A program made the position numbers and the translations under genes. Shown one piece after another: positions 19,944 to 61,227 of a stretch of DNA of 64,000 nucleotides (position 1 is its first letter; each line of letters starts with the position of its first letter). Source of the stretch: Candidatus Moraniibacteriota bacterium (GTDB lineage Bacteria > Patescibacteriota > Minisyncoccia > Moranbacterales > UBA2206); contig JBAQNM010000015.1 of assembly GCA_049303795.1 (NCBI GenBank), positions 36,590 to 100,589 on the forward strand. The letters run 5' to 3'. The notes under the pieces are model-generated. The model did not search any database, had not been told where the DNA came from, and was given only the letters and a program-made list of their open reading frames with translations.

Positions 19944-20080
19944 GGTCACACGACGGCGGTGCCCTTGCGAACACCCCAAAACCCTTTCGAGTGAGAACCT
20001 GCGTAACAAGTACCGATCATGAGACCGTTTATGTTACGCGAGGTTCCAGACCATGCCCCACCAAAGAGTGAGGTTTAGGT
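19944..20080. ncRNA. GC-rich structured element of unknown identity (candidate small RNA)
   Basis: ~140-nt island of about 55% GC in a ~25% GC intergenic region with no ORF. Complementary segments include CCTGCGTAACA/TGTTACGCGAGG and GGTG/CACC. It sits directly 5' of a copy of the 20085-20130 direct repeat. Confidence 0.3.
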
Positions 20081-20084
20081 CAAT

Positions 20085-20130
20085 TCAATTGTATTTGTAT
20101 TTTGCCTTATTTTTGGACAAAAATCAACCT
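20085..20130 (+). repeat. direct repeat, copy a (...TGCCTTATTTTNNGACAAAAATCAA)
   Basis: Matches copies at 33765-33818 and 36372-36427. Confidence 0.55.
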
Positions 20131-30544: not shown

Positions 30545-31972
30545 TTATAGCCAAAGCTCGTTTATAGATACGATTTGATCGGGAATAGCTCGCTCCAGAA
30601 TCCTCTCCTTCATCAGGTCAACAAATTCTGAAATGAGTCTATAAACATAGGCGTAGCAATCCATTCGCGGATAGTTGTTTTTCTGCACAACGCAACCACC
30701 GCCACACAAAGGACCAATATGGCAAATTCTGCAATCCTCCTTTTCCATAAAAGTCTTGCTCTTAAGTTTTGCTTCGTTTTCAGAAAAACCACTGCTTGCC
30801 TCGCCAATGCAGAAAGTATTATTATTGATAGTTCTTGGGCAATGAAAAATCCTTCCATCAGTTGAGAATACATAATGGAAACCTTTTTGAGGTTCACAAA
30901 AACCAAACTTGGGCCCCCAATACGTTTTATATCTGCCCAACCAATCGAAGCTATGGGTGAGGTGTGCAAGATATTTAAAACTTTCAAACTTCAGCTTGCC
31001 TCGAAGTTCAGGATGATTTTCCCAGAGCTCAATGATTGATTTCACCATTATCGCTTCGGTTATTTCATCCTTCCGAGAGTCCAGATTGGCATAATCATGA
31101 GAGCCTTCGATTCGCCACTGAAAATTAGATAAACTAAGCCAGCCTTTATCTTTAATGAACGAGGATAATTCTTCCAAGCAGTCCGCATTGCCTGCACCAA
31201 GAATAGTTTGCACCTTTACCTGAAAATTTCTTTTGAGCAGACTATCCACGGCCGAAACAACTTCGGTGAAAGATCCTTTGCCTCCCCTGAAAGGTCTTCG
31301 TAAATTGTGCGCATGAGAAGGTCCATCAATTGTTATCCGAAAATCGGATATAACCTCTCTGAACCTCTCGAAAACCTTCATAAAATTTAACACTCTAGAC
31401 CCATTGGTTACAATAACGCATTTCCAATTATTCCGCTCGGCCGTCTCCAGTATCCAATTAAGAATATTTCTGCTGGAAACCAGCAGTGGCTCTCCCCCGA
31501 AAATAATAAGATTCATCTTGTCCGCTGGTATATTCTTTTCTTCCTGAATCTTTTTTATCCGACTGCTTACATCCTCCAATACCCTCCTGCTGATTTGCGA
31601 ATTTTTTAGGATTTTTTTCTCATAGCAGATAGGGCAAGCGAAATTACAATTGAGCGTTGTAAGAACGTAGAACCAGTAGGGCACATGCTTGCCGTGCTCT
31701 TGACTAGTTTTAATTAGCCTCTCCAGTTGCAATGAATCATCATTCTGAATCAAATAGCCTCTTGAATTAAGAATATCCCCTTCTTTACTGTCAATTTTCC
31801 CCTCAAGAATTCTTTTGGGAACGATATCAATCGCTCCTGTGAGTGTGTTAATCAGCAACAAAAATAAATCACTGAGCTCAAATACAATTGTCCTTGCATT
31901 AAATATGGCCACGATAGTCTCCTTTATATAGGTCTTTATTATTTGGTATTTACTATTTTTAATATAAGTCAA
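30545..31972 (-). CDS. radical SAM / SPASM-domain protein with an N-terminal extension
   Basis: CX3CX2C (LNCNFACPICYEKK). C-terminal Cys-rich SPASM-like segment (CPRT...CRICHIGPLCGGGCVVQ...C). Extra ~100 aa at the N-terminus. Confidence 0.8.
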   Translation of the reverse strand: MTYIKNSKYQIIKTYIKETIVAIFNARTIVFELSDLFLLLINTLTGAIDIVPKRILEGKIDSKEGDILNSRGYLIQNDDSLQLERLIKTSQEHGKHVPYWFYVLTTLNCNFACPICYEKKILKNSQISRRVLEDVSSRIKKIQEEKNIPADKMNLIIFGGEPLLVSSRNILNWILETAERNNWKCVIVTNGSRVLNFMKVFERFREVISDFRITIDGPSHAHNLRRPFRGGKGSFTEVVSAVDSLLKRNFQVKVQTILGAGNADCLEELSSFIKDKGWLSLSNFQWRIEGSHDYANLDSRKDEITEAIMVKSIIELWENHPELRGKLKFESFKYLAHLTHSFDWLGRYKTYWGPKFGFCEPQKGFHYVFSTDGRIFHCPRTINNNTFCIGEASSGFSENEAKLKSKTFMEKEDCRICHIGPLCGGGCVVQKNNYPRMDCYAYVYRLISEFVDLMKERILERAIPDQIVSINELWL

Positions 31973-32048: not shown

Positions 32049-32234
32049 TTATTCTTTCAGCTTCTCTAAATATTCCATGCCTTGCTTATAATTCTTAAAT
32101 TTATCCGCTTTTGCTCCAAAAAAAGATCTTGAATTTTTAAAAGGAAATGTCGAAAGTAAATTGAATGTAAAATTTGACCAATAAGGCACTTTGATTCGCT
32201 TACCTGGCGGTAGACAGAAATCCTTCCTCCTCAA
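32049..32234 (-). pseudogene. remnant of a HAD-hydrolase paralog
   Basis: The C-terminal ~22 aa (FGAKADKFKNYKQGMEYLEKLKE) align with the C-terminus of the HAD at 33845-34438 (LGMKTIEFKNYKQCVEDLEML), and the DNA similarity extends past the stop. The remainder of the ORF is not HAD-like. Confidence 0.45.
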
Positions 32235-32286: not shown

Positions 32287-32315
32287 TTGACATGATGGCT
32301 ATTTTATGCTATCAT
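32287..32315 (+). promoter_or_regulatory. near-consensus sigma70 promoter (module P2)
   Basis: TTGACA, 17 nt, TATCAT. The -10/+1 region TATGCTATCATTGTTAGTTCATT is almost identical to the promoter at 35264. Confidence 0.65.
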
Positions 32316-33115: not shown

Positions 33116-33150
33116 CTCGCGTAACACCCGAGCATAACACATTCAAAACA

Positions 33151-33183
33151 GGGTCACTAGATATTTCTAGTGACCCTTTTTCT
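33151..33183 (+). terminator. rho-independent terminator
   Basis: GGGTCACTAGA-TATTT-TCTAGTGACCC followed by TTTTTCT. Confidence 0.75.
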
Positions 33184-33285
33184 ATGATAAATTCAACGAA
33201 GATATTTTAATTTAATTCCATAACCTAAATACTGGCTTAAATTAGCCATTTCTTGCTTATTTTACTCAAATCGCTATCACGGCAC

Positions 33286-33313
33286 TTGACAAGTTCCATA
33301 GATAGTGTATACT
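33286..33313 (+). promoter_or_regulatory. near-consensus sigma70 promoter (module P3) driving a noncoding unit
   Basis: TTGACA, 16 nt, TATACT, preceded by the AATTAGCCATTTCTTGCTT box that also precedes promoter P4. Confidence 0.55.
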
Positions 33314-33770
33314 GTAGTGTACGATTGGTTGATTTACAATTTTTGTCACTCGAAAGATTTTCGAAAAATAGCCCTGGCATGAACAGTTGTGCTCGCAAAC
33401 AGGATGAAATTCGAAATTCAATCGAAACTTGATTTATCCGATGCAAGAGGTGCATTAGGCAATCAAGGATGAAAGTTGCGAATGCAACTGATCGTAGGTA
33501 GTGGTTCTTTTATTTTTTATTTTTTAAGAAAAACGTTGCGTGCATGTAAGCGCAACGCGAGAGTGCAAGTATTTTTTTATTTTTGTTCAAAAGTAAGACC
33601 CTTGCGAGCACTAGCCGTCTGAATTGAATCTGATTTAAGCACAATGTGGATTCGGTCAGAAGTTCGTTTAGATGGCGAAAAATGGAGAAGGATCCACAAA
33701 AAGTCGAGACCAGACTATAATGGTCGAGTACCCAATCTATGGGGGATATGCGCTGCATATCCCCTTTTTT
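33314..33770 (+). ncRNA. candidate ~450-nt noncoding transcript bounded by a promoter and a terminator
   Basis: No credible ORF on the plus strand; the minus-strand ORFs look spurious. GC is above the backbone. Internal hairpins include GTTGCGAATGCAAC and CGTTGCGTGCATGTAAGCGCAACG. It ends in the terminator GGGGATATG-CGCTG-CATATCCCC-TTTTTT (33742-33770). Confidence 0.35.
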
Positions 33771-33818
33771 ATTTTCCAATTTCTAATCTCCCCTGCCTTA
33801 TTTTCAGACAAAAATCAA
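33765..33818 (+). repeat. direct repeat, copy b
   Basis: TTTTTTATTTTCCAATTTCTAATCTCCCCTGCCTTATTTTCAGACAAAAATCAAGC, about 85% identical to copy c. Confidence 0.6.
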
Positions 33819-33844
33819 GCTAGCTTTGCTATATAATATCAAAA

Positions 33845-34438
33845 TCAATTGCCTAAAAGCATTTCTAAATCTTCCACACATTGTTTATAATTCTTAAACT
33901 CGATCGTCTTCATTCCAAGAATTTTAGCAGGTTCTAGATTTTTTATTCTATCTTCAATATAAATACACTCCCCTGCTTCTAAATTCAATCTTTCAAGGAC
34001 TTTTTTATATATTTCTATATCTGGTTTTGCAAAACCCACATCATAAGACGTCACTATCACATCAAAAACTTCTCTAAATTTCTTCTCTTCCAAAATAGGC
34101 TCGAGCCAAGATTCTATCTGATTGGACAGTATCGCTAATTTATATTTACCCTGTAGATTATTTTTAACATAAGCATAAAGCTCATCGCGAAAGCCAGTGT
34201 ATTCAACAAAATATTTTTTGAATTTAAATGCATCCATTCCCACAAAAGCTCCAAGTTTTTCCCAGAAAATATTAGAATCTATTTTTCCAACTCTAGCTTC
34301 TAACCAAATAGACAGCCCTATCTCATTTGCTTTTTGCGAATCGACATTCAACTTCACAGCATTGTTCAACCAAAATTCCTGAATATCATCATTTATGGAG
34401 AAAACGCCGCCGAAGTCAAATATTATTGCTTTATACAT
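33845..34438 (-). CDS. HAD-superfamily hydrolase (canonical motifs)
   Basis: Motif I IIFDFGGV, motif II LSNQ, and YIEDRIKNLEP for motif IV. Confidence 0.75.
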   Translation of the reverse strand: MYKAIIFDFGGVFSINDDIQEFWLNNAVKLNVDSQKANEIGLSIWLEARVGKIDSNIFWEKLGAFVGMDAFKFKKYFVEYTGFRDELYAYVKNNLQGKYKLAILSNQIESWLEPILEEKKFREVFDVIVTSYDVGFAKPDIEIYKKVLERLNLEAGECIYIEDRIKNLEPAKILGMKTIEFKNYKQCVEDLEMLLGN

Positions 34439-35170: not shown

Positions 35171-35263
35171 AATCATATAGACAGACAACCACTAACTTCT
35201 TTCTATGATCTCAAAGTTTTAAAAAATCGCCTCAATTAGCCATTTTTTGCTTTTCCTGATCGA

Positions 35264-36347: not shown

Positions 36348-36382
36348 GACCCTCTTTTCTCAAGAGGGTCCTTTTTTATTTT
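36348..36382 (+). terminator. rho-independent terminator
   Basis: GGACCCTCTT-TTCTCA-AGAGGGTCC followed by TTTTTTATTTT. Confidence 0.75.
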
Positions 36383-36427
36383 CCAATTTATTAATTTCCC
36401 CCTGCCTGATTTTTAGACAAAAATCAA
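36372..36427 (+). repeat. direct repeat, copy c
   Basis: TTTTTTATTTTCCAATTTATTAATTTCCCCCTGCCTGATTTTTAGACAAAAATCAAAT. Confidence 0.6.
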
Positions 36428-36448
36428 ATATTACTTTAGTATTAAATT

Positions 36449-37567
36449 ATGCAGAATAAAAAATTTATAAATGTTTTAACTTTCTATGTGACCTATCTTT
36501 GGTTCACATCTTTTGGTGGTGCCATATTACCTACGCATTTTTTAGCGCAAGGCATTAATTATAATCAAATGATTTTGGGAAAGTTTTTAATTTTTACCAG
36601 TCCACTTGTTTTACTTGTGTTCCTAAAATCCTTTTCTTCTAAAATTGCCTGGCGATTAGCTCCGTTTTCCTATTTAATGTTTGTATTATTATCTATTAAA
36701 ATTCTTGGCGTAACACAGTTTTATATCGCCAGTATATTTATCGGATTTTCTATCTTCTTCTTTTATGTCTTCTATAATATTGCTCATTTTAGAAATACTC
36801 AAAAAGAAAAAACTGGCCACAGCTCGGCTATAATGTTCAGCTTAGGACCGATAATAAATATCCTCGCCCCTCTAGCTTCCGGATATATTGCTAACATTAG
36901 TTTCACATTATTGTGGATTCTAGCAATTGTTTCTTTTTTTGTTTGTATTTTTTTTGCCGAAAAGCAAGAAAGTTTTCGCGTTTCATATACCGTGAAAAAT
37001 GCCTTGCGAGAGATAAGAGCTACTCGATTATTTATTTTTATTGGAGGAATATGGGAAGCAATCCCCTTTGGGATTATTCCCGTCTTTACTTTATATTTCA
37101 TAAAGGATCCTCTCCCTTATGGCGCTTATTTAGCCTATCTTTCCTTGATTGCCGTGTTTGCTAATTTGGTTTTAGGAAAAATTACCGATAGAATACAAAA
37201 AAGATCCATCTTTCTCTATCCTATAACGATAGCTATGGCTCTCATAACTTTTCTTCTCTATTTCTCAATTGATAATTTATATCTATGGATAGTAGCCACT
37301 AGTCTATTGCAATTCGTTTTGCCATTATTTTGGAATATTTCTACTGCCATGGTTATCGACACTCACTCAAATTTAGAGCTGGCCATTCCTGGTCGTGAGA
37401 TTATGCTCACGAGTGGAAGGATAATTGGACTTCTCCTTACTTTTCTCAGTTTGCTAATTGAAAAAACACCCAAAGATATTTTTATTTTTTTAGGCTTTGT
37501 AATTTTATTATATCCAACTCTTCTATTTTGGAACACACGGATAACTAAAAAATATAGCTATCTATAA
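36449..37567 (+). CDS. polytopic membrane protein (about 10-12 TM), transporter-like
   Basis: 372-aa highly hydrophobic ORF with regularly spaced helices. No diagnostic motif. Confidence 0.55.
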   Translation: MQNKKFINVLTFYVTYLWFTSFGGAILPTHFLAQGINYNQMILGKFLIFTSPLVLLVFLKSFSSKIAWRLAPFSYLMFVLLSIKILGVTQFYIASIFIGFSIFFFYVFYNIAHFRNTQKEKTGHSSAIMFSLGPIINILAPLASGYIANISFTLLWILAIVSFFVCIFFAEKQESFRVSYTVKNALREIRATRLFIFIGGIWEAIPFGIIPVFTLYFIKDPLPYGAYLAYLSLIAVFANLVLGKITDRIQKRSIFLYPITIAMALITFLLYFSIDNLYLWIVATSLLQFVLPLFWNISTAMVIDTHSNLELAIPGREIMLTSGRIIGLLLTFLSLLIEKTPKDIFIFLGFVILLYPTLLFWNTRITKKYSYL

Positions 37568-37840: not shown

Positions 37841-38080
37841 AAAATCAAGACCCCACTGCTAGTTTCCCCATGAAAACTTATTTTGCTTGAAATCACCAGA
37901 AAAATGCTACTGATTCTTTTGGCGATATAGCCACTTGCTTTTTTCTTTATTCTGTATTAACCTGAATTCAGGCAGTTTTAAACAAAAAACTGCCAAAAAT
38001 ACAACAGAACCTTAACAAAAAGCATTGTGCTTTTTTTTGTTTTAGCCAACCAATACCCACATAATATCAGGAGGCGTTTT

Positions 38081-39367
38081 ATGCGAAATACTATTCTAGC
38101 GAAGCTAGAAAAAAGATTTTCCTTAACCTCCCCTATTAATATATGGATGAGGTTAGTAACAAAAATTGAAACAGAAGCTGGCAAGATGATTATATCTTGC
38201 CCAAACAACACCACCAAAAAAAGACTCGGGGCACTTTCCGAAGAGATCTGTTCCGCGCTTGACTTAAAAGAAATCAGTCTGGTTATTGCGGGTACCAGCG
38301 CTGAGGAAAATACAAAAACAGTCCCCGCTGGAGATCCACAGTTGCATCTTCCAATGCACATTTCCACAAAATCGCCAAGACTTAGACCAAATTTTAATTT
38401 TGCTAATTTTTTCGTTGGCAACTTTAATAGTGTAGCCTATCATTCGGCGATGGCTTTGATTGATGAAAAGCAAAAAGCAACGGCGCCTGTGTTCATTTTT
38501 TCCGAACCGGGACTTGGCAAGACCCATCTCGCGCAAGCAATTTGTGCGAGTAATCATTCGGCTTGCTACATAACTGCCCCTTTTCTTATGGACGAGGTAG
38601 TTTATGCCTGTAGTAACGGTGGCACTGGAAGCATAAGAAAAAGATTTGCAATAAACATTGACCTGCTTGTGGTCGATGAGGTTCAAAGCTTATCGGGAAA
38701 AAACAGAACTCAAGAAGAGCTGTGCTATATAACCGATACGATACTTGACCGAGGTAAAAAAATAATCTTTTTGGGAATGCTCTCGCCAGGTGAACTTTTA
38801 AGGATAAGCGACCCTCTTCTTTCTCGTTTTCAATCATCCACTATTTGCAGTATAACTAGGCCCGATCTTGAAGATAGATTCAACCTTATTCAAAAAAAGG
38901 CCTCTGTATCTGAGCAAGTGATTTCCGATGAAGTTATTGACATCTTGGCAAGAAGATTGAGCGGTGACGTAAGAGTTATTGAAGGCTGTATTACCAGCAT
39001 GTTAAATAAGGCCACTTTTTCAAGTAGACCAATTGATACTGTTTTGGCAGAGGAAATAATCGAACAATTTGCCTCCGCCAAGAAAAAAGATCCGGCCAGC
39101 GACATCCTGAAAGTTGTCACATCCAACTTCAATCTTAAGGAAAAAGATTTATTCTCAAAAAGCCGACAGAAAAAAACTGTAATGGCAAGACAAATCTGCA
39201 TGTTTTTCTTAAGAGAACAAACGAATATGTCGCTAAAAGCGATTGGAGAAATTTTCAATCGTGATCACGCGACAGTAGCATACGCTATAACGGAAGTTCA
39301 GGAGAAAATAAATCACCTCCCAAGTTTCCTAACAACTATCGCGATTCTTAGAAAACAAATCACATAA
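38081..39367 (+). CDS. dnaA: chromosomal replication initiator DnaA
   Basis: RBS AGGAGG then ATG 38081. AAA+ domain (Walker A GLGKTHL; LLVVDEVQ). C-terminal DnaA signature RDHATVAYA within the HTH domain. Confidence 0.85.
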   Translation: MRNTILAKLEKRFSLTSPINIWMRLVTKIETEAGKMIISCPNNTTKKRLGALSEEICSALDLKEISLVIAGTSAEENTKTVPAGDPQLHLPMHISTKSPRLRPNFNFANFFVGNFNSVAYHSAMALIDEKQKATAPVFIFSEPGLGKTHLAQAICASNHSACYITAPFLMDEVVYACSNGGTGSIRKRFAINIDLLVVDEVQSLSGKNRTQEELCYITDTILDRGKKIIFLGMLSPGELLRISDPLLSRFQSSTICSITRPDLEDRFNLIQKKASVSEQVISDEVIDILARRLSGDVRVIEGCITSMLNKATFSSRPIDTVLAEEIIEQFASAKKKDPASDILKVVTSNFNLKEKDLFSKSRQKKTVMARQICMFFLREQTNMSLKAIGEIFNRDHATVAYAITEVQEKINHLPSFLTTIAILRKQIT

Positions 39368-57984: not shown

Positions 57985-60900
57985 CTAAGCCGTCACTTTT
58001 CTACTTGAAAAAAGTTTAGTAACTCTGGCAACCCAATGCAACATATCTTCCCTATTACCATTGATATTTCCGCCTTCCGTATTGCCAATTCTTGCTTCAT
58101 CTCCCAGAAGATGAACGAAATCAGCTTCTATATTTTTTATTTTTTCAGCTAAAGCTGCATTAACAATTCCATTTTCCCTAGTTGATTCATAGGTTATTTC
58201 CCAAATTCTCCTATTTTTTATTATATCCCAGTTTTTAGGATCACCTAGCGACAATTCTACCATTAAATTCTTTCCAAAAGCTACTTCCTTAGTCATAAAA
58301 GAAGTTGCTTCGACATCATATTTCTCAAGTATTCCGATTGATTTTGAATCTAAATTATCATAGCCAGAATTTGACTGTTCCAAAGATTCAGTCTCAGCAG
58401 GTGTAACGTCTGATTCAACAGGAGCGACAGTTGCAGCTCCTTCTGCGCTATTCAAAGAATCATTTCCGGTTGATGCCGGCTTATTTTCAATATTTTTTTC
58501 CGTATCCAGCGGAGCAGGAGTGGCTTCTTTGGGAGCTGAAATTTCACTATCTGGCGTTTCAGAATCTGCGACATCAATATCTGGATTTCCAATTTCTCCA
58601 TCCATACCCGATTCAACCGCATTATCCGCACTTAAAATTTCAGGCTTTAAGTTTTCAGAGGTATTTTTGATAATTTCTTCCACCTTAGCTGGGGTCAGTG
58701 GTTGATCCGGGTTATCAATCCTCCAGCTAGCTATTTTGGCATTATTTTCAGTAATATTTTTCAACTCTTCGGGATTTAAACTTTCAGCTTGATAGAATGC
58801 ATCTGTAATATCAGAATCGTCCTCAAACAAACTGGACAGGTCGACTTCTTGACCAACATTAATTTCATCAACATTTTCCAATCCAAAACTGCTTGGATCA
58901 TTCGCCACTTTATCTTTCAATGCGTCTATAATATGGGCTTGTATGGCTGGATCGAGTTTGGAAAATCCCTCATAACGCCCTTGCAGTTGCCTATCAATCA
59001 TCTTCCAAACTGAATCGCCTTTTCCGACAATCTCAACGCCCTTAATATTTTCAACTGGCGAATTCGTGTCAAAACCTTTTTCAAAAGCATCCCCAGAGGC
59101 AATAGTCGAACTAGGTCCTGCTTCAGTTTCAAGATCCACTGACAACTCAGGAACTTTTTCTGAATAAATTTCAGAACTAGCGCCAACAGGAATCTCATGA
59201 TTATCTGAAGGAATTTCTGGATTAACCGGACTAACATTCGCATGCTCTGTTAAATTAATTGGTTTACCAATTTCTTCTAGTGAATCATTTCCCACTGAAA
59301 AGTTAGGGTCATACAAAGGAATTGTTGAATTGGTTGGTGGAAGATCAAATCCGGAGTCAGACGGAACCTTAGAGGCGTCCTTGAATAAATTATGAAAAAA
59401 TTCCTTCTTCCTTGCTAAATCAGCAGCTTTATCGGGTCTAAGACCAGAATCACTGCCTGCAGAATCAACGCTAGCATCAGATCCAGGGGAAACATCTGGA
59501 TTAGCATTTGCGTCGCTAGTTAAATCAACTGGCTTGCCGATTTCTTCCAAATGAGTATTTTCTGGTGAAACATCCGGATTAGCATTTGCGTGCTCCGCTA
59601 AATCCACTGGCTTGCCGATAGTCTCCAAGTGAGAACCAGGCAAGGGAACATCAACACTATTTCCAGTTGGAATTTCTGCGCTATTAAAATGACTGAAGAG
59701 GTAGGAGCCAGATCCAACAAGAATACCCGCTGTTATGCCAAAAAGCCTCCTGCTTCTCGCCTTATCCTTTTCCGTTTTTAAACCTTTAGCATATCCGTTA
59801 ATCTCCTCTTGCATTAATTCCTTCATTGCTTCATATTTTGCTTCCGGATTATTTATACTTTCAACATTTCTAATGATTTCTGCTTGTTTTTTTTGTCTTT
59901 CTGCTCCTTCTTTTTTTCTATATCTGACTTCAAGCGCTCCAGTTATACCAGCCCCAGCCATCAATCCAGATAAACCTCTTTTCATGAGTTTAGCGACTCC
60001 TACGGCACTGGCGAGACCAGTGGCACCTGCGAATCCAGCAGTGCCAGCGATGCCAACCGCCACACCAGCAGAAAGAAGCCCAACAGAAGCCAGCATTTTC
60101 AGCTTCCAATCCAATTTTCTATATCCATTAACAAACTTCTCGCTTTTTTTTGCTAGATAGTTAGGCAACTTATATTTATTCTCCCATGCCTCTGTCTTTG
60201 CATTAGTTCGCGCTTCAATAAGATTCATTTGCTCACTTTCGTTATAATACTTTGCCAAAACTTCCATTTTTTCAGTCAGTTCCGTTGGAGAAAGACTTTC
60301 TTTTTTAAGTTCTTTTATTTGATGATCAAGAAGATCTTTAAGTGCATCTTTATAATTGGCGAAATAAATTTTAGATTCTTGAGAAATTTGCTGATTAGGA
60401 CGAAAAAATCTTCCCAAAGTATTTTTTATTCCAGTAATAGCATTTGTCAGTTCATAGTCTTTTTTAGCATAGAGACCTCTCGCTATTTCAACTGCCGTCA
60501 TAAGATCTGCCTCTCGCTCCTTTCCATCAATGCCAGCATATTTCAGGTCTGCTGGAACAACATCCACTACCTCGGGAATGATTACTTCGGCGTTCTTACT
60601 AGTTTCCGGCTTAGCTTCAAAAATTTCCCGCAACGTCATTGTTCCGTCTTGCACACCTTTAACTAGATTCTCAAATTCCTCCACGCTTTCAATAGTCCTT
60701 TCCTCGAATCCACCACCCGGCAATTTAATACTAATTTCGACTATTCCAGTATTTTCTGAATAATCCTTAACAAAAAAAGCATCGCCATTCTTATCAAAAA
60801 CTCTATCATCCGGAGCTTTTTTCAAACCAAGACTATTGCATTTTTCAAAAAATTCTTTTTTACTTATAACACCTTCCTTTTTTACTTCCTCCTTGCTTCT

Positions 60901-61227
60901 AGCTTTATCCTGATAGTCTTTAAATTTTTCAGAATTCTTAAAATCTTCCAGCTGTTCAGATAAGGCTTTAAGATTCTCCATAGAAATATCCTCAGGTTTT
61001 TTAAAACTATCAGACTCTGCTCCGAAAACTTCTTTATACATCTTCTTGAGATCGCTGCGTAAATTTTTTCGTAGACCATTAAGATTCCCTTTGAGATCTT
61101 TATTTGCTAATTCATTTTCCAGTAAATCATTATACGCTTTCTCGCAAGCTGCAAGCAGTTCTGCTTGCTCATTTTTTCCATCTGTTTCAACCTTAGGCTT
61201 TGGTTTATAAACGTCCTCTTTGCTCAT
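57985..61227 (-). CDS. giant membrane protein (1080 aa) with coiled-coil N-terminus, Gly-rich TM hairpins and a C-terminal region with tandem ~28-aa repeats
   Basis: TM block LASVGLLSAGVAVGIAGTAGFAGATGLASAVGVAKL...LSGLMAGAGITGALEV...LFGITAGILVGSGSYLF. Repeats IGKPVDLAEHANANPDVSP / IGKPVDLTSDANANPDVSP / IGKPINLTEHANVSPVNP. Confidence 0.6.
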   Translation of the reverse strand: MSKEDVYKPKPKVETDGKNEQAELLAACEKAYNDLLENELANKDLKGNLNGLRKNLRSDLKKMYKEVFGAESDSFKKPEDISMENLKALSEQLEDFKNSEKFKDYQDKARSKEEVKKEGVISKKEFFEKCNSLGLKKAPDDRVFDKNGDAFFVKDYSENTGIVEISIKLPGGGFEERTIESVEEFENLVKGVQDGTMTLREIFEAKPETSKNAEVIIPEVVDVVPADLKYAGIDGKEREADLMTAVEIARGLYAKKDYELTNAITGIKNTLGRFFRPNQQISQESKIYFANYKDALKDLLDHQIKELKKESLSPTELTEKMEVLAKYYNESEQMNLIEARTNAKTEAWENKYKLPNYLAKKSEKFVNGYRKLDWKLKMLASVGLLSAGVAVGIAGTAGFAGATGLASAVGVAKLMKRGLSGLMAGAGITGALEVRYRKKEGAERQKKQAEIIRNVESINNPEAKYEAMKELMQEEINGYAKGLKTEKDKARSRRLFGITAGILVGSGSYLFSHFNSAEIPTGNSVDVPLPGSHLETIGKPVDLAEHANANPDVSPENTHLEEIGKPVDLTSDANANPDVSPGSDASVDSAGSDSGLRPDKAADLARKKEFFHNLFKDASKVPSDSGFDLPPTNSTIPLYDPNFSVGNDSLEEIGKPINLTEHANVSPVNPEIPSDNHEIPVGASSEIYSEKVPELSVDLETEAGPSSTIASGDAFEKGFDTNSPVENIKGVEIVGKGDSVWKMIDRQLQGRYEGFSKLDPAIQAHIIDALKDKVANDPSSFGLENVDEINVGQEVDLSSLFEDDSDITDAFYQAESLNPEELKNITENNAKIASWRIDNPDQPLTPAKVEEIIKNTSENLKPEILSADNAVESGMDGEIGNPDIDVADSETPDSEISAPKEATPAPLDTEKNIENKPASTGNDSLNSAEGAATVAPVESDVTPAETESLEQSNSGYDNLDSKSIGILEKYDVEATSFMTKEVAFGKNLMVELSLGDPKNWDIIKNRRIWEITYESTRENGIVNAALAEKIKNIEADFVHLLGDEARIGNTEGGNINGNREDMLHWVARVTKLFSSRKVTA
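59200..59650 (-). repeat. in-frame tandem DNA repeats (~84-nt unit) inside the giant ORF
   Basis: Two near-identical adjacent units (59491-59574 and 59575-59650) plus a diverged copy near 59215-59290. Confidence 0.6.

Follow-up and report, generated by a model that had tools for sequence, protein, structure and literature searches.

A probable structured noncoding RNA gene of about 450 nt, outside the Rfam families, in a Candidatus Moraniibacteriota bacterium

Large structured RNAs are rare in bacteria, and the few that have been characterised are ribozymes, ribonucleoprotein scaffolds or self-assembling particles. The CPR/Patescibacteria, which account for a large share of bacterial diversity and have tiny genomes, are to our knowledge almost unstudied at the RNA level. 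Here we describe a locus in a 64,000-nucleotide stretch of DNA (the window) from a Candidatus Moraniibacteriota MAG that belongs to this group; the proteins encoded around the locus are 100% identical to Candidatus Moraniibacteriota MAG proteins, which sets aside an origin in Leptospira, suggested by the occurrence of LOOT RNA there. The plus strand from 33319 to 33772 is probably an independently transcribed gene for a structured ncRNA of about 450 nt, of a family absent from Rfam 15. Like OLE, GOLLD, ROOL, raiA and HEARO, this RNA forms its own transcription unit of several hundred nucleotides, with multi-domain junctions and conserved single-stranded segments, and it shares with them a patchy and narrow distribution, the lack of an evident partner protein gene and a function that is not deducible from context. 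Unlike them, it gives no sequence or structure match to any of the five (cmscan, E <= 10). It is smaller than OLE, GOLLD and ROOL and is so far known from CPR/Parcubacteria-type contigs alone, and as it has far fewer homologues than those five RNAs its structure is much less well supported. Among known RNAs we group it with the large structured bacterial RNAs of the orphan kind, as a family of its own.

An earlier note on this DNA had taken a promoter and a terminator with nothing coding between them as the signature of an RNA gene, and homologues, slow divergence and compensatory changes now support that proposal. The unit, its boundary elements and its surroundings are as follows.

33226-33258 (+): upstream element, a small hairpin (TGGCT/AGCCA) and a T-run with the core AATTAGCCATTTYTTGCTT, terminator-like in a scan
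33286-33313 (+): sigma-70-type promoter TTGACA-16-TATACT, matching the consensus at 11/12 positions
33319-33772 (+): predicted primary transcript (ncRNA), about 450 nt, its 5' end placed from the -10 hexamer and its 3' end from the terminator U-run
33741-33772 (+): intrinsic terminator, GGGGGAUAUGC-GCU-GCAUAUCCCC then a U-run, kept as a hairpin in the homologous contig L031
33794-33818 (+): 25-nt element TGCCTTATTTTCAGACAAAAATCAA with a palindromic core, at the 3' edge of the conserved block
33845-34438: HAD gene, next downstream of the unit and convergent with it
Genes around the unit: split CoaBC; a radical-SAM protein; small proteins of 152 aa and 78 aa of unknown function; the convergent HAD phosphatase; a pentapeptide-repeat protein; two further unknown proteins; an MFS transporter; a DnaA-like protein

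Both signals named in the note are present. The promoter hexamers and their spacing are identical in the window and in the two homologues, L031 and L026. As the same promoter type lies upstream of real neighbouring genes, at 32287 and 35265, the promoters of this organism are sigma-70-like and the match at the ncRNA is meaningful. The canonical terminator has an 11-bp stem with six G-C pairs (33741-33765) followed by TTTTTTATTTT. Its counterpart in L031 is GGGGUAUGCA-CUCGU-UGCAUACCCC followed by Us, with compensatory changes in the stem, so that the letters of the stem have altered while the hairpin has been retained. Terminator-like sites are frequent here, with eight in the 3-kb region against 2.2 expected, and the upstream 152-aa and 78-aa genes have a strong terminator of their own at 33150-33177.

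The upstream element belongs to repeat D9, which pairs 33226-33258 with 35220-35252 and has motif copies at 33240 and 35234. The neighbouring operon for proteins of 212 aa and 104 aa has the same 5' and 3' boundary elements as the ncRNA unit. The idea that the unit is a decayed copy of that operon was rejected, as neither blastn nor tblastx finds residual similarity in the payload. GC, which the note had put above the backbone, is so only marginally, at 0.355-0.435 across the ncRNA region (200-nt windows) against 0.32-0.40 for the window (2-kb bins). G exceeds C on the plus strand throughout the region, as expected for a G-U-rich folded RNA.

The locus is carried by nine contigs from several assemblies and runs, and the RNA region is 100% identical wherever it is covered. 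Pfam and PADLOC searches, which covered the ORFs of 120 aa or more from about 20.2 to 44.9 kb, detect no gene for a reverse transcriptase, a Cas protein, TnpB/IscB, an integrase or a toxin, in agreement with the note's view that no reverse transcriptase, Cas gene or toxin is adjacent. The sole PADLOC matches among these ORFs are generic, a radical-SAM core to pVip and a weak MotB. No tandem array was found near the unit. Accordingly, these ORFs include no partner gene, and there is no array, for a retron msr/msd, a DRT ncRNA, a tracrRNA/crRNA, an omega RNA or a type III antitoxin, and HEARO gives no match. A replication origin, suggested by a DnaA gene 4 kb away, AT-rich tracts and ATCCACA strings, was rejected given that the window has no GC-skew switch and that its DnaA boxes are neither in excess nor clustered.

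Homologues were found by scanning JGI metagenomes with the 25-nt element as probe; the element is present on 15 contigs, two of which contain the RNA. One of these, L031, has it at full length (1744-2261; nhmmer E 6e-95, 83% identity over aligned columns), the counterpart of the transcript itself being L031 1802-2250. The other, L026, has on its minus strand the 5' ~180 nt (177) up to the contig end (nhmmer E 1.4e-14, 71% identity). Their covariance model scores are 184 bits (L031) and 146 bits (L026). Comparative alignment thus shows that the whole unit is kept in L031, and its 5' domain also in L026, with compensatory substitutions in several helices. Judged by these alignments, the RNA appears to be present in the Candidatus Moraniibacteriota bacterium and in at least two related uncultured populations.

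Elsewhere the RNA was not encountered. No additional copy in the window or in 29 other loci is picked up by a covariance model built on the 5' domain, and the RNA is absent beside the homologues of the 152-aa (L010-L012), 78-aa (L013-L015) and HAD (L021-L024) proteins and at the radical-SAM homologue loci L016-L020, whose radical-SAM copies are distant, apparently horizontally transferred, and located in DPANN archaea and other CPR. With no homologue beside the homologues of its neighbours, the known distribution of the RNA is narrow. A metagenome scan with a 21-mer of the RNA gave no matches, phage and plasmid BLAST likewise gave none, and viral-contig scans with two RNA segments and the motif returned 0 matches. 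The invariant probe sequence of the RNA is TGTGCTCGCANACAGGATGAAATT.

Each of the three contigs has its own gene upstream of the unit: the window has the 78-aa gene there, L031 a RhuM-like gene, and L026 a divergent cytidylyltransferase-like gene. The conserved part is the RNA unit. The homology that the window shares with L031 begins at 33223, at the upstream hairpin that forms the 5' edge of the conserved block, runs to 33818 at the end of the 25-nt element, and then ends. The alignment picks up again 10 nt ahead of the pentapeptide-repeat start codon (ATG) and the intervening DNA is not alignable, the HAD gene being an insertion or deletion difference between the two genomes. In the RNA, 17% of aligned sites differ from L031. 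In the neighbouring pentapeptide-repeat gene, which has 87% protein identity, the corresponding figures are 46% at four-fold sites and 34% at third codon positions. Divergence of the RNA is therefore about 2.7-fold below that of the four-fold sites and the spacer cannot be aligned, which shows purifying selection on the unit.

The different flanking genes and the narrow known distribution could also be expected of a non-functional spacer or mobile-element debris with fortuitous signals, conserved through recent shared ancestry or cassette transfer. The area is moreover rearranged, as a fragment of the HAD 3' end at 32059-32122 is 72% identical to 33858-33921, and the genes upstream of the unit have raised GC. 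We regard such an origin as improbable, given the low divergence relative to four-fold sites beside spacers that do not align, the exact retention of the promoter in the 71%-identical L026, and the compensatory changes in helices. In addition, no transposase, integrase or terminal inverted repeats were detected around the unit, and no phage, plasmid or viral match was obtained.

Could the conserved sequence encode a small protein, or have done so formerly? The note had seen no plus-strand ORF after the promoter, which is true to the extent that none is conserved, but ORFs of 48, 54 and 59 aa do exist within the unit. The plus-strand ORF beginning MNSCARK is shortened by a stop codon in L031 and lacks a start codon in L026. 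In the one beginning MAKNGE, three nucleotide changes alter two codons, both non-synonymously, and the frame passes through the terminator into non-homologous sequence. A frame that starts with GCU in the conserved segment stops at three different positions in the three homologues. The two minus-strand ORFs, of 72 and 89 aa, which the note had described as of poor, low-complexity composition, have neither a Pfam match nor a protein homologue. No ORF of the region has a significant Pfam or PHROG match (the best PHROG match of the 89-aa ORF has a non-significant E of 0.072). The 89-aa ORF forms a singleton cluster, and among 1.84 billion (1.84e9) representative proteins it matches nothing but itself and, weakly, two very long proteins.

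Gene callers do predict the 89-aa gene on several Logan contigs, and short ORFs lie on both strands, so that a protein encoded by the 89-aa or 72-aa minus-strand ORF or a short plus-strand peptide deserves mention. However, the NCBI annotation of the same sequence (L001) has no gene there, the plus-strand ORFs are broken or frame-shifted in the homologues with their few substitutions all non-synonymous, and the substitution pattern tracks base-pairing and not codon periodicity. We consider a coding origin, present or past, extremely unlikely, and it is already largely refuted: neither a degraded nor a real protein gene was found with Pfam, PHROG, the representative proteins or the homologues.

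A riboswitch or leader is a same-strand 5' UTR of the gene it regulates and carries a conditional expression platform. In L031 the pentapeptide-repeat gene follows the RNA by about 100 nt on the same strand, and the window retains the same gene 820 nt downstream of the RNA. This arrangement raises the possibility of a long cis-acting leader, riboswitch- or attenuator-like, controlling the pentapeptide-repeat gene by conditional termination at 33741-33772, with the L031 arrangement ancestral. In the window, however, the convergent HAD gene intervenes, so read-through cannot reach the pentapeptide-repeat gene without crossing an antisense gene, and as the gene directly downstream is convergent, the RNA is not a leader in this genome. 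In L031 itself, a separate site that resembles a promoter, TGGACA-17-TATATT, follows the terminator and precedes the gene. Furthermore, reading the sequence revealed no alternative antiterminator that could pair with the 5' half of the terminator stem, none of the riboswitch or leader families gives a match, and about 450 nt with two closed domains would be unusually long for a leader. We therefore view a leader function as quite unlikely and favour a free-standing RNA gene.

The predicted fold of this RNA gene consists of two domains and includes the following features.

33319-33497 (+): 5' domain, a three-way junction (RNAalifold on three sequences, 52 pairs; z = -5.0)
33388-33411 (+): most conserved segment, UGUGCUCGCA(A/G)ACAGGAUGAAAUU, identical in all three sequences except for one A/G site (A in the window)
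33476-33489 (+): hairpin GTTGCGAATGCAAC
33501-33697 (+): 3' domain, a multi-helix junction (RNAalifold of window and L031)
33535-33558 (+): variable hairpin CGTTGCGTGCATGTAAGCGCAACG, CGUUGCG-loop-CGCAACG, kept as a hairpin with its sequence replaced in L031
33602-33611 (+): UUGCGAGCAC, a perfect 10-nt complement of 33389-33398 in the P4 loop
33614-33676 (+): long imperfect hairpin GCCGUCUGAAU...UUUAGAUGGC, covarying between window and L031
33703-33731 (+): predicted hairpin with the core GACCA/UGGUC, inside a near-invariant stretch (33672-33741)

The plus strand from 33320 to 33775 folds at -148 kcal/mol with z = -6.9, against z = -3.9 for the minus strand, and the homologues give z = -6.8 (L031) and -4.1 (L026). 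The stable hairpins that the note had pointed out, at 33476-33489 and 33535-33558, are both present. In the 5' domain, a closing helix P1 of about 26 bp joins 33320-33348 to 33469-33497, and from the junction extend one arm of P2-P4 and another of P5-P6. Three independent MFE folds of this domain have the same topology, and 94% of cells are paired in its three-sequence consensus. Eight pairs changed on both sides, a number reached in 0/500 shuffles, and slid controls gave 0-1. With a set of three sequences, two of them full length, such covariation has little statistical strength, and the helix sets were derived from these same sequences. When the 5' domain of the window MFE is projected on L031, it has three broken pairs where 9.6 are expected (P = 0.001); projected on L026 the result is marginal (P = 0.08). 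Similarly, in the less biased test, the full-length window MFE projected on L031 keeps 17 changed pairs and breaks 22, a marginal outcome (P ~0.1), and many long-range A/U-rich pairs of the single-sequence MFE are probably spurious. Overall, structural support from these three sequences is moderate.

The 3' portion (33498-33775) folds with z = -5.8. The closing helix of the 3' domain pairs GUGGUUCU (33501-33508) with AGAAGGAUCCAC (33686-33697) and differs from L031 by two one-sided changes that retain pairing (G-C to G-U and U-G to U-A). In place of the variable hairpin L031 has another, GGCUGCAU-GCAA-AUGUAGCC, which is folded in the L031 MFE, and the U-rich linkers of the domain vary in length between homologues. 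The long imperfect hairpin has two pairs changed on both sides (U-G to G-U and U-A to C-G), three changed on one side and none broken. The near-invariant stretch of about 70 nt that spans the end of this domain has three changes relative to L031.

Membership of a known family was judged against the 4227 covariance models of Rfam 15, by a match at the gathering threshold or a consistent sub-threshold match in all homologues. No Rfam 15 family accommodates the RNA: at E <= 10 the region gives chance matches to terminators and U-runs alone, and L031 and L026 yield nothing in common at the same cut-off. The Rfam/Infernal scan thus being negative, the RNA family is uncatalogued. Across the window, matches at the gathering threshold are a tRNA-Gln and a LOOT RNA alone, both away from the ncRNA region. 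Given the conserved signals, selection without coding and covarying helices (n = 3, with marginal projections), the locus has the general features of a structured ncRNA.

CPR genomes are divergent and the size of the RNA lies within the range of RNase P RNA and tmRNA, so a highly divergent housekeeping RNA (RNase P RNA, tmRNA, 6S or SRP RNA) could in principle have been missed by standard models. Isolated look-alike strings exist for two of these: GAUGAAAGU resembles the GAGGAAAGU of RNase P, and GGAUUCGG the GGAUUCGAC of tmRNA. However, none of the RNase P, tmRNA, 6S and SRP families gives a match at E <= 10 in the three homologues. A tmRNA has a tRNA-like domain of acceptor and T-arm plus a tag reading frame; ARAGORN detects none in the window, Rfam gives no tmRNA match, and the RNA has no tRNA-like acceptor/T-arm or CCA-proximal structure. 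Bacterial RNase P RNA has CR-I to CR-V and the long-range helix P4; the sole P4-like partner, CGCAAC at 33552-33557, sits in the hairpin that is replaced in L031, and a P4 pairing partner is therefore absent.

The comparison with 6S RNA is closer in some respects. The 5' domain is of about 180 nt, a 6S-like size, its ends form a long imperfect closing helix, and the promoter is strong and constitutive-looking. A 6S RNA, about 180 nt long in all, is a long hairpin with a large promoter-mimicking central bubble. Here the 5' domain forms a three-way junction instead, a further ~270 nt follow as an extra 3' domain, and no homologue gives an Rfam 6S match. The absence of the RNA beside the homologues of its neighbours and its narrow known distribution are also unlike an essential RNA. 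We consider a disguised housekeeping RNA very unlikely.

The note had called the RNA regulatory, a role that is an assumption, and small or medium in size; its length of about 450 nt and its two multi-helix domains give it more the look of the large structured RNAs than of a typical small regulator. It does resemble trans-acting base-pairing sRNAs in its own promoter, its Rho-independent terminator and a highly conserved, exposed potential seed, but typical sRNAs are two to five times shorter, and this RNA has two closed multi-helix domains. When RNAduplex was used to match the conserved segment to the translation-initiation regions of the window, no target stood out clearly from shuffled controls. 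The strings ACAGGAUGA and CAAGGAUGA resemble the CsrA-binding consensus; a CsrA sponge was dropped, as one site alone is conserved in all three homologues. Our literature search found nothing relevant on CPR ncRNAs or the LOOT context.

The 24-nt segment at 33388-33411 takes in the loop of P4 together with the 3' strand of that helix, and its near-invariance makes it the likely best candidate for a functional site. Within it, 33389-33398 could form a duplex of -19.6 kcal/mol with 33602-33611; both sides are invariant and are kept in L031. RNAalifold selects this candidate long-range helix, which competes with an overlapping local helix, UGCAAG/CUUGCG, that has one compensatory and two wobble changes relative to L031. 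The candidate pairing may be an alternative conformation, or the loop may be free for an external partner.

We propose that the RNA works in trans and in a stably folded form, as a protein-binding scaffold or a regulator, and not as the leader of a neighbour. The near-invariant segment in and next to the P4 loop would be its functional site. The segment may dock on its 10-nt complement and tie the two domains together, or alternatively its partner, in base-pairing or in binding, may be an external molecule. We think a real structured ncRNA of a new family likely, and are much less confident of any one mode of action.

On a bolder and, in our estimate, unlikely reading, this RNA is the first representative of a new class of large RNAs with complex folds that is particular to CPR/Patescibacteria. 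Its biochemical role would then go further than regulation by base-pairing; it might, for instance, be a ribozyme, assemble with itself or serve as the scaffold of a ribonucleoprotein. On this view the near-invariant P4-loop segment would contact its 10-nt complement, either between domains or between molecules, and the RNA might be co-regulated with LOOT RNA through the 25-nt palindromic element that they have in common.

As to its meaning, the maintenance under selection of a ~450-nt gene with a consensus promoter in a streamlined genome suggests a role worth its cost. If confirmed, the RNA would add a new family to the short list of large structured RNAs and would be a target for metatranscriptomics and structure work. 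Its occurrence in CPR and its comparatively large size are what make it notable, within the limits of a narrow distribution and thin covariation.

The same genome holds one further orphan ncRNA gene that adjoins the same 25-nt palindromic element:

19958-20081 (-): LOOT RNA (RF03000), by Rfam, in the same window

Unlike the RNA described here, LOOT is of about 120 nt, its sequence and fold are unrelated, and the element is placed differently. Pairing predicted by RNAduplex between the complete RNA and LOOT did not stand clearly apart from that of shuffled controls. The element occurs in three copies in the window against 0 expected. It lies 3' of the terminator in the window and L031, and 5' of the RNA promoter in L026 alone. 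It is probably a promoter or operator element, outside the RNA proper, and as such could give a first view of the promoter/operator architecture of RNA genes in CPR. In five places, the element is found 21 nt from the 5' end of a LOOT RNA.

The sequence 3' of the structured RNA gene includes a 25-nt element, TGCCTKATTTTYRGACAAAAATCAA, whose palindromic core reads ATTTTTG-GA-CAAAAAT and whose probable role is that of a promoter or operator module. The window holds three copies against an expectation of zero, and exact copies are present in 15 JGI metagenome contigs (L025-L039; GC 31-46%). One of the copies in the window accompanies a LOOT RNA, and the ncRNA unit and the operon of the 212-aa protein share a further, upstream element:

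20103-20127, first copy of the 25-nt element
33794-33818, second copy of the 25-nt element
36403-36427, third copy of the 25-nt element
19958-20081, minus strand, LOOT RNA (RF03000; 57.5 bits), the host being a Moraniibacteriota MAG
33226-33258 and 35220-35252, upstream element, a small hairpin followed by a T-run, AATTAGCCATTTYTTGCTT; also at 1710-1741 of L031, the contig with the full-length ncRNA homologue

More LOOT RNA copies (78-80 bits) are encoded on three of the metagenome contigs (L028, L030 and L032), and on these as in the window the distance from the 5' end of the RNA to the 25-nt element is exactly 21 nt. At the same loci, and also on L039 where the LOOT-like sequence is sub-threshold, a -10-like hexamer (TACAAT or TACAAC) lies 9 nt past the element. 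On L026, which carries a homologue of the 5' ~180 nt, the element is found upstream of the ncRNA promoter, and on L036 it precedes a tRNA by 64 nt. In promoter-like sites of the L031 pentapeptide gene and the MFS gene of the window, the -35 (TGGACA or TAGACA) falls within the element.

The ncRNA and 212-aa operon units have similar terminator-promoter boundaries around unrelated payloads. At both promoters the upstream element precedes the -35 by 12-27 nt, and a repeat on the 3' side (33763-33848 versus 36370-36460) is ~79% identical between the two. In two NCBI assemblies for this organism, the contigs L004 and L008 end at window ~33763-33765, approximately at the start of a 56-nt repeat 3' of the ncRNA terminator, which fits with the repeat having misled the assembler.

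The area around the ncRNA is also prone to rearrangement. Adjoining the radical-SAM gene is a 64-nt fragment (32059-32122) that resembles the 3' end of the HAD gene (33858-33921; 72% identity), and thus the block of the 152-aa gene, the 78-aa gene and the ncRNA is flanked by imperfect direct repeats. The ORF at this fragment (32049-32234) terminates in ...FKNYKQGMEYLEKLKE. L031 is entirely without the HAD gene.

Two neighbouring proteins were traced in other genomes.

30545-31972, minus strand, radical-SAM protein of 475 aa

Among GTDB representative genomes, the closest relatives of this protein (L016-L020; 49-56% identity) are in DPANN archaea (Woesearchaeota, Nanoarchaeota), Saccharibacteria and CPR2, a distribution suggestive of horizontal transfer between episymbiont lineages. 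The core of the protein matches the PADLOC pVip (viperin) models, probably due only to the generic radical-SAM core. The 152-aa protein has homologues (52-64% identity) at L010 7832-8700 and L012 12-1036, encoded directly 3' of a tRNA (Gln or Glu). After them, on the opposite strand, comes a sequence in which a GGTTCGAATCC/GGTTCGATTCC motif resembles a T-loop. Neither ARAGORN nor Rfam made a call on this sequence, which may represent a fragment of a tRNA or tmRNA, or else what is left of an attachment site.

Farther along the window there is a gene of the DnaA family.

38027-39367, plus strand, DnaA-family gene (446-aa ORF; 428 aa as called)

No dnaN lies 3' of it, and neither a GC-skew switch nor a DnaA-box cluster was found in the window; the gene is either a DnaA paralogue or part of an atypical origin region. 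At 59216-59633, three diverged copies of a 70-nt repeat (60-80% identity; start-to-start spacing of 270 and 78 nt) fall within a 1080-aa minus-strand ORF (57985-61227), which points to a large protein containing repeats.

Within the ncRNA itself, the 9-mer AGGAUGAAA occurs twice, at 33401-33409 and 33466-33474 (contexts ACAGGAUGAAA and CAAGGAUGAAA). It looks like a Shine-Dalgarno sequence plus AUG and also resembles the consensus for CsrA binding. Conservation in all three ncRNA homologues is limited to the first copy (33401-33409).
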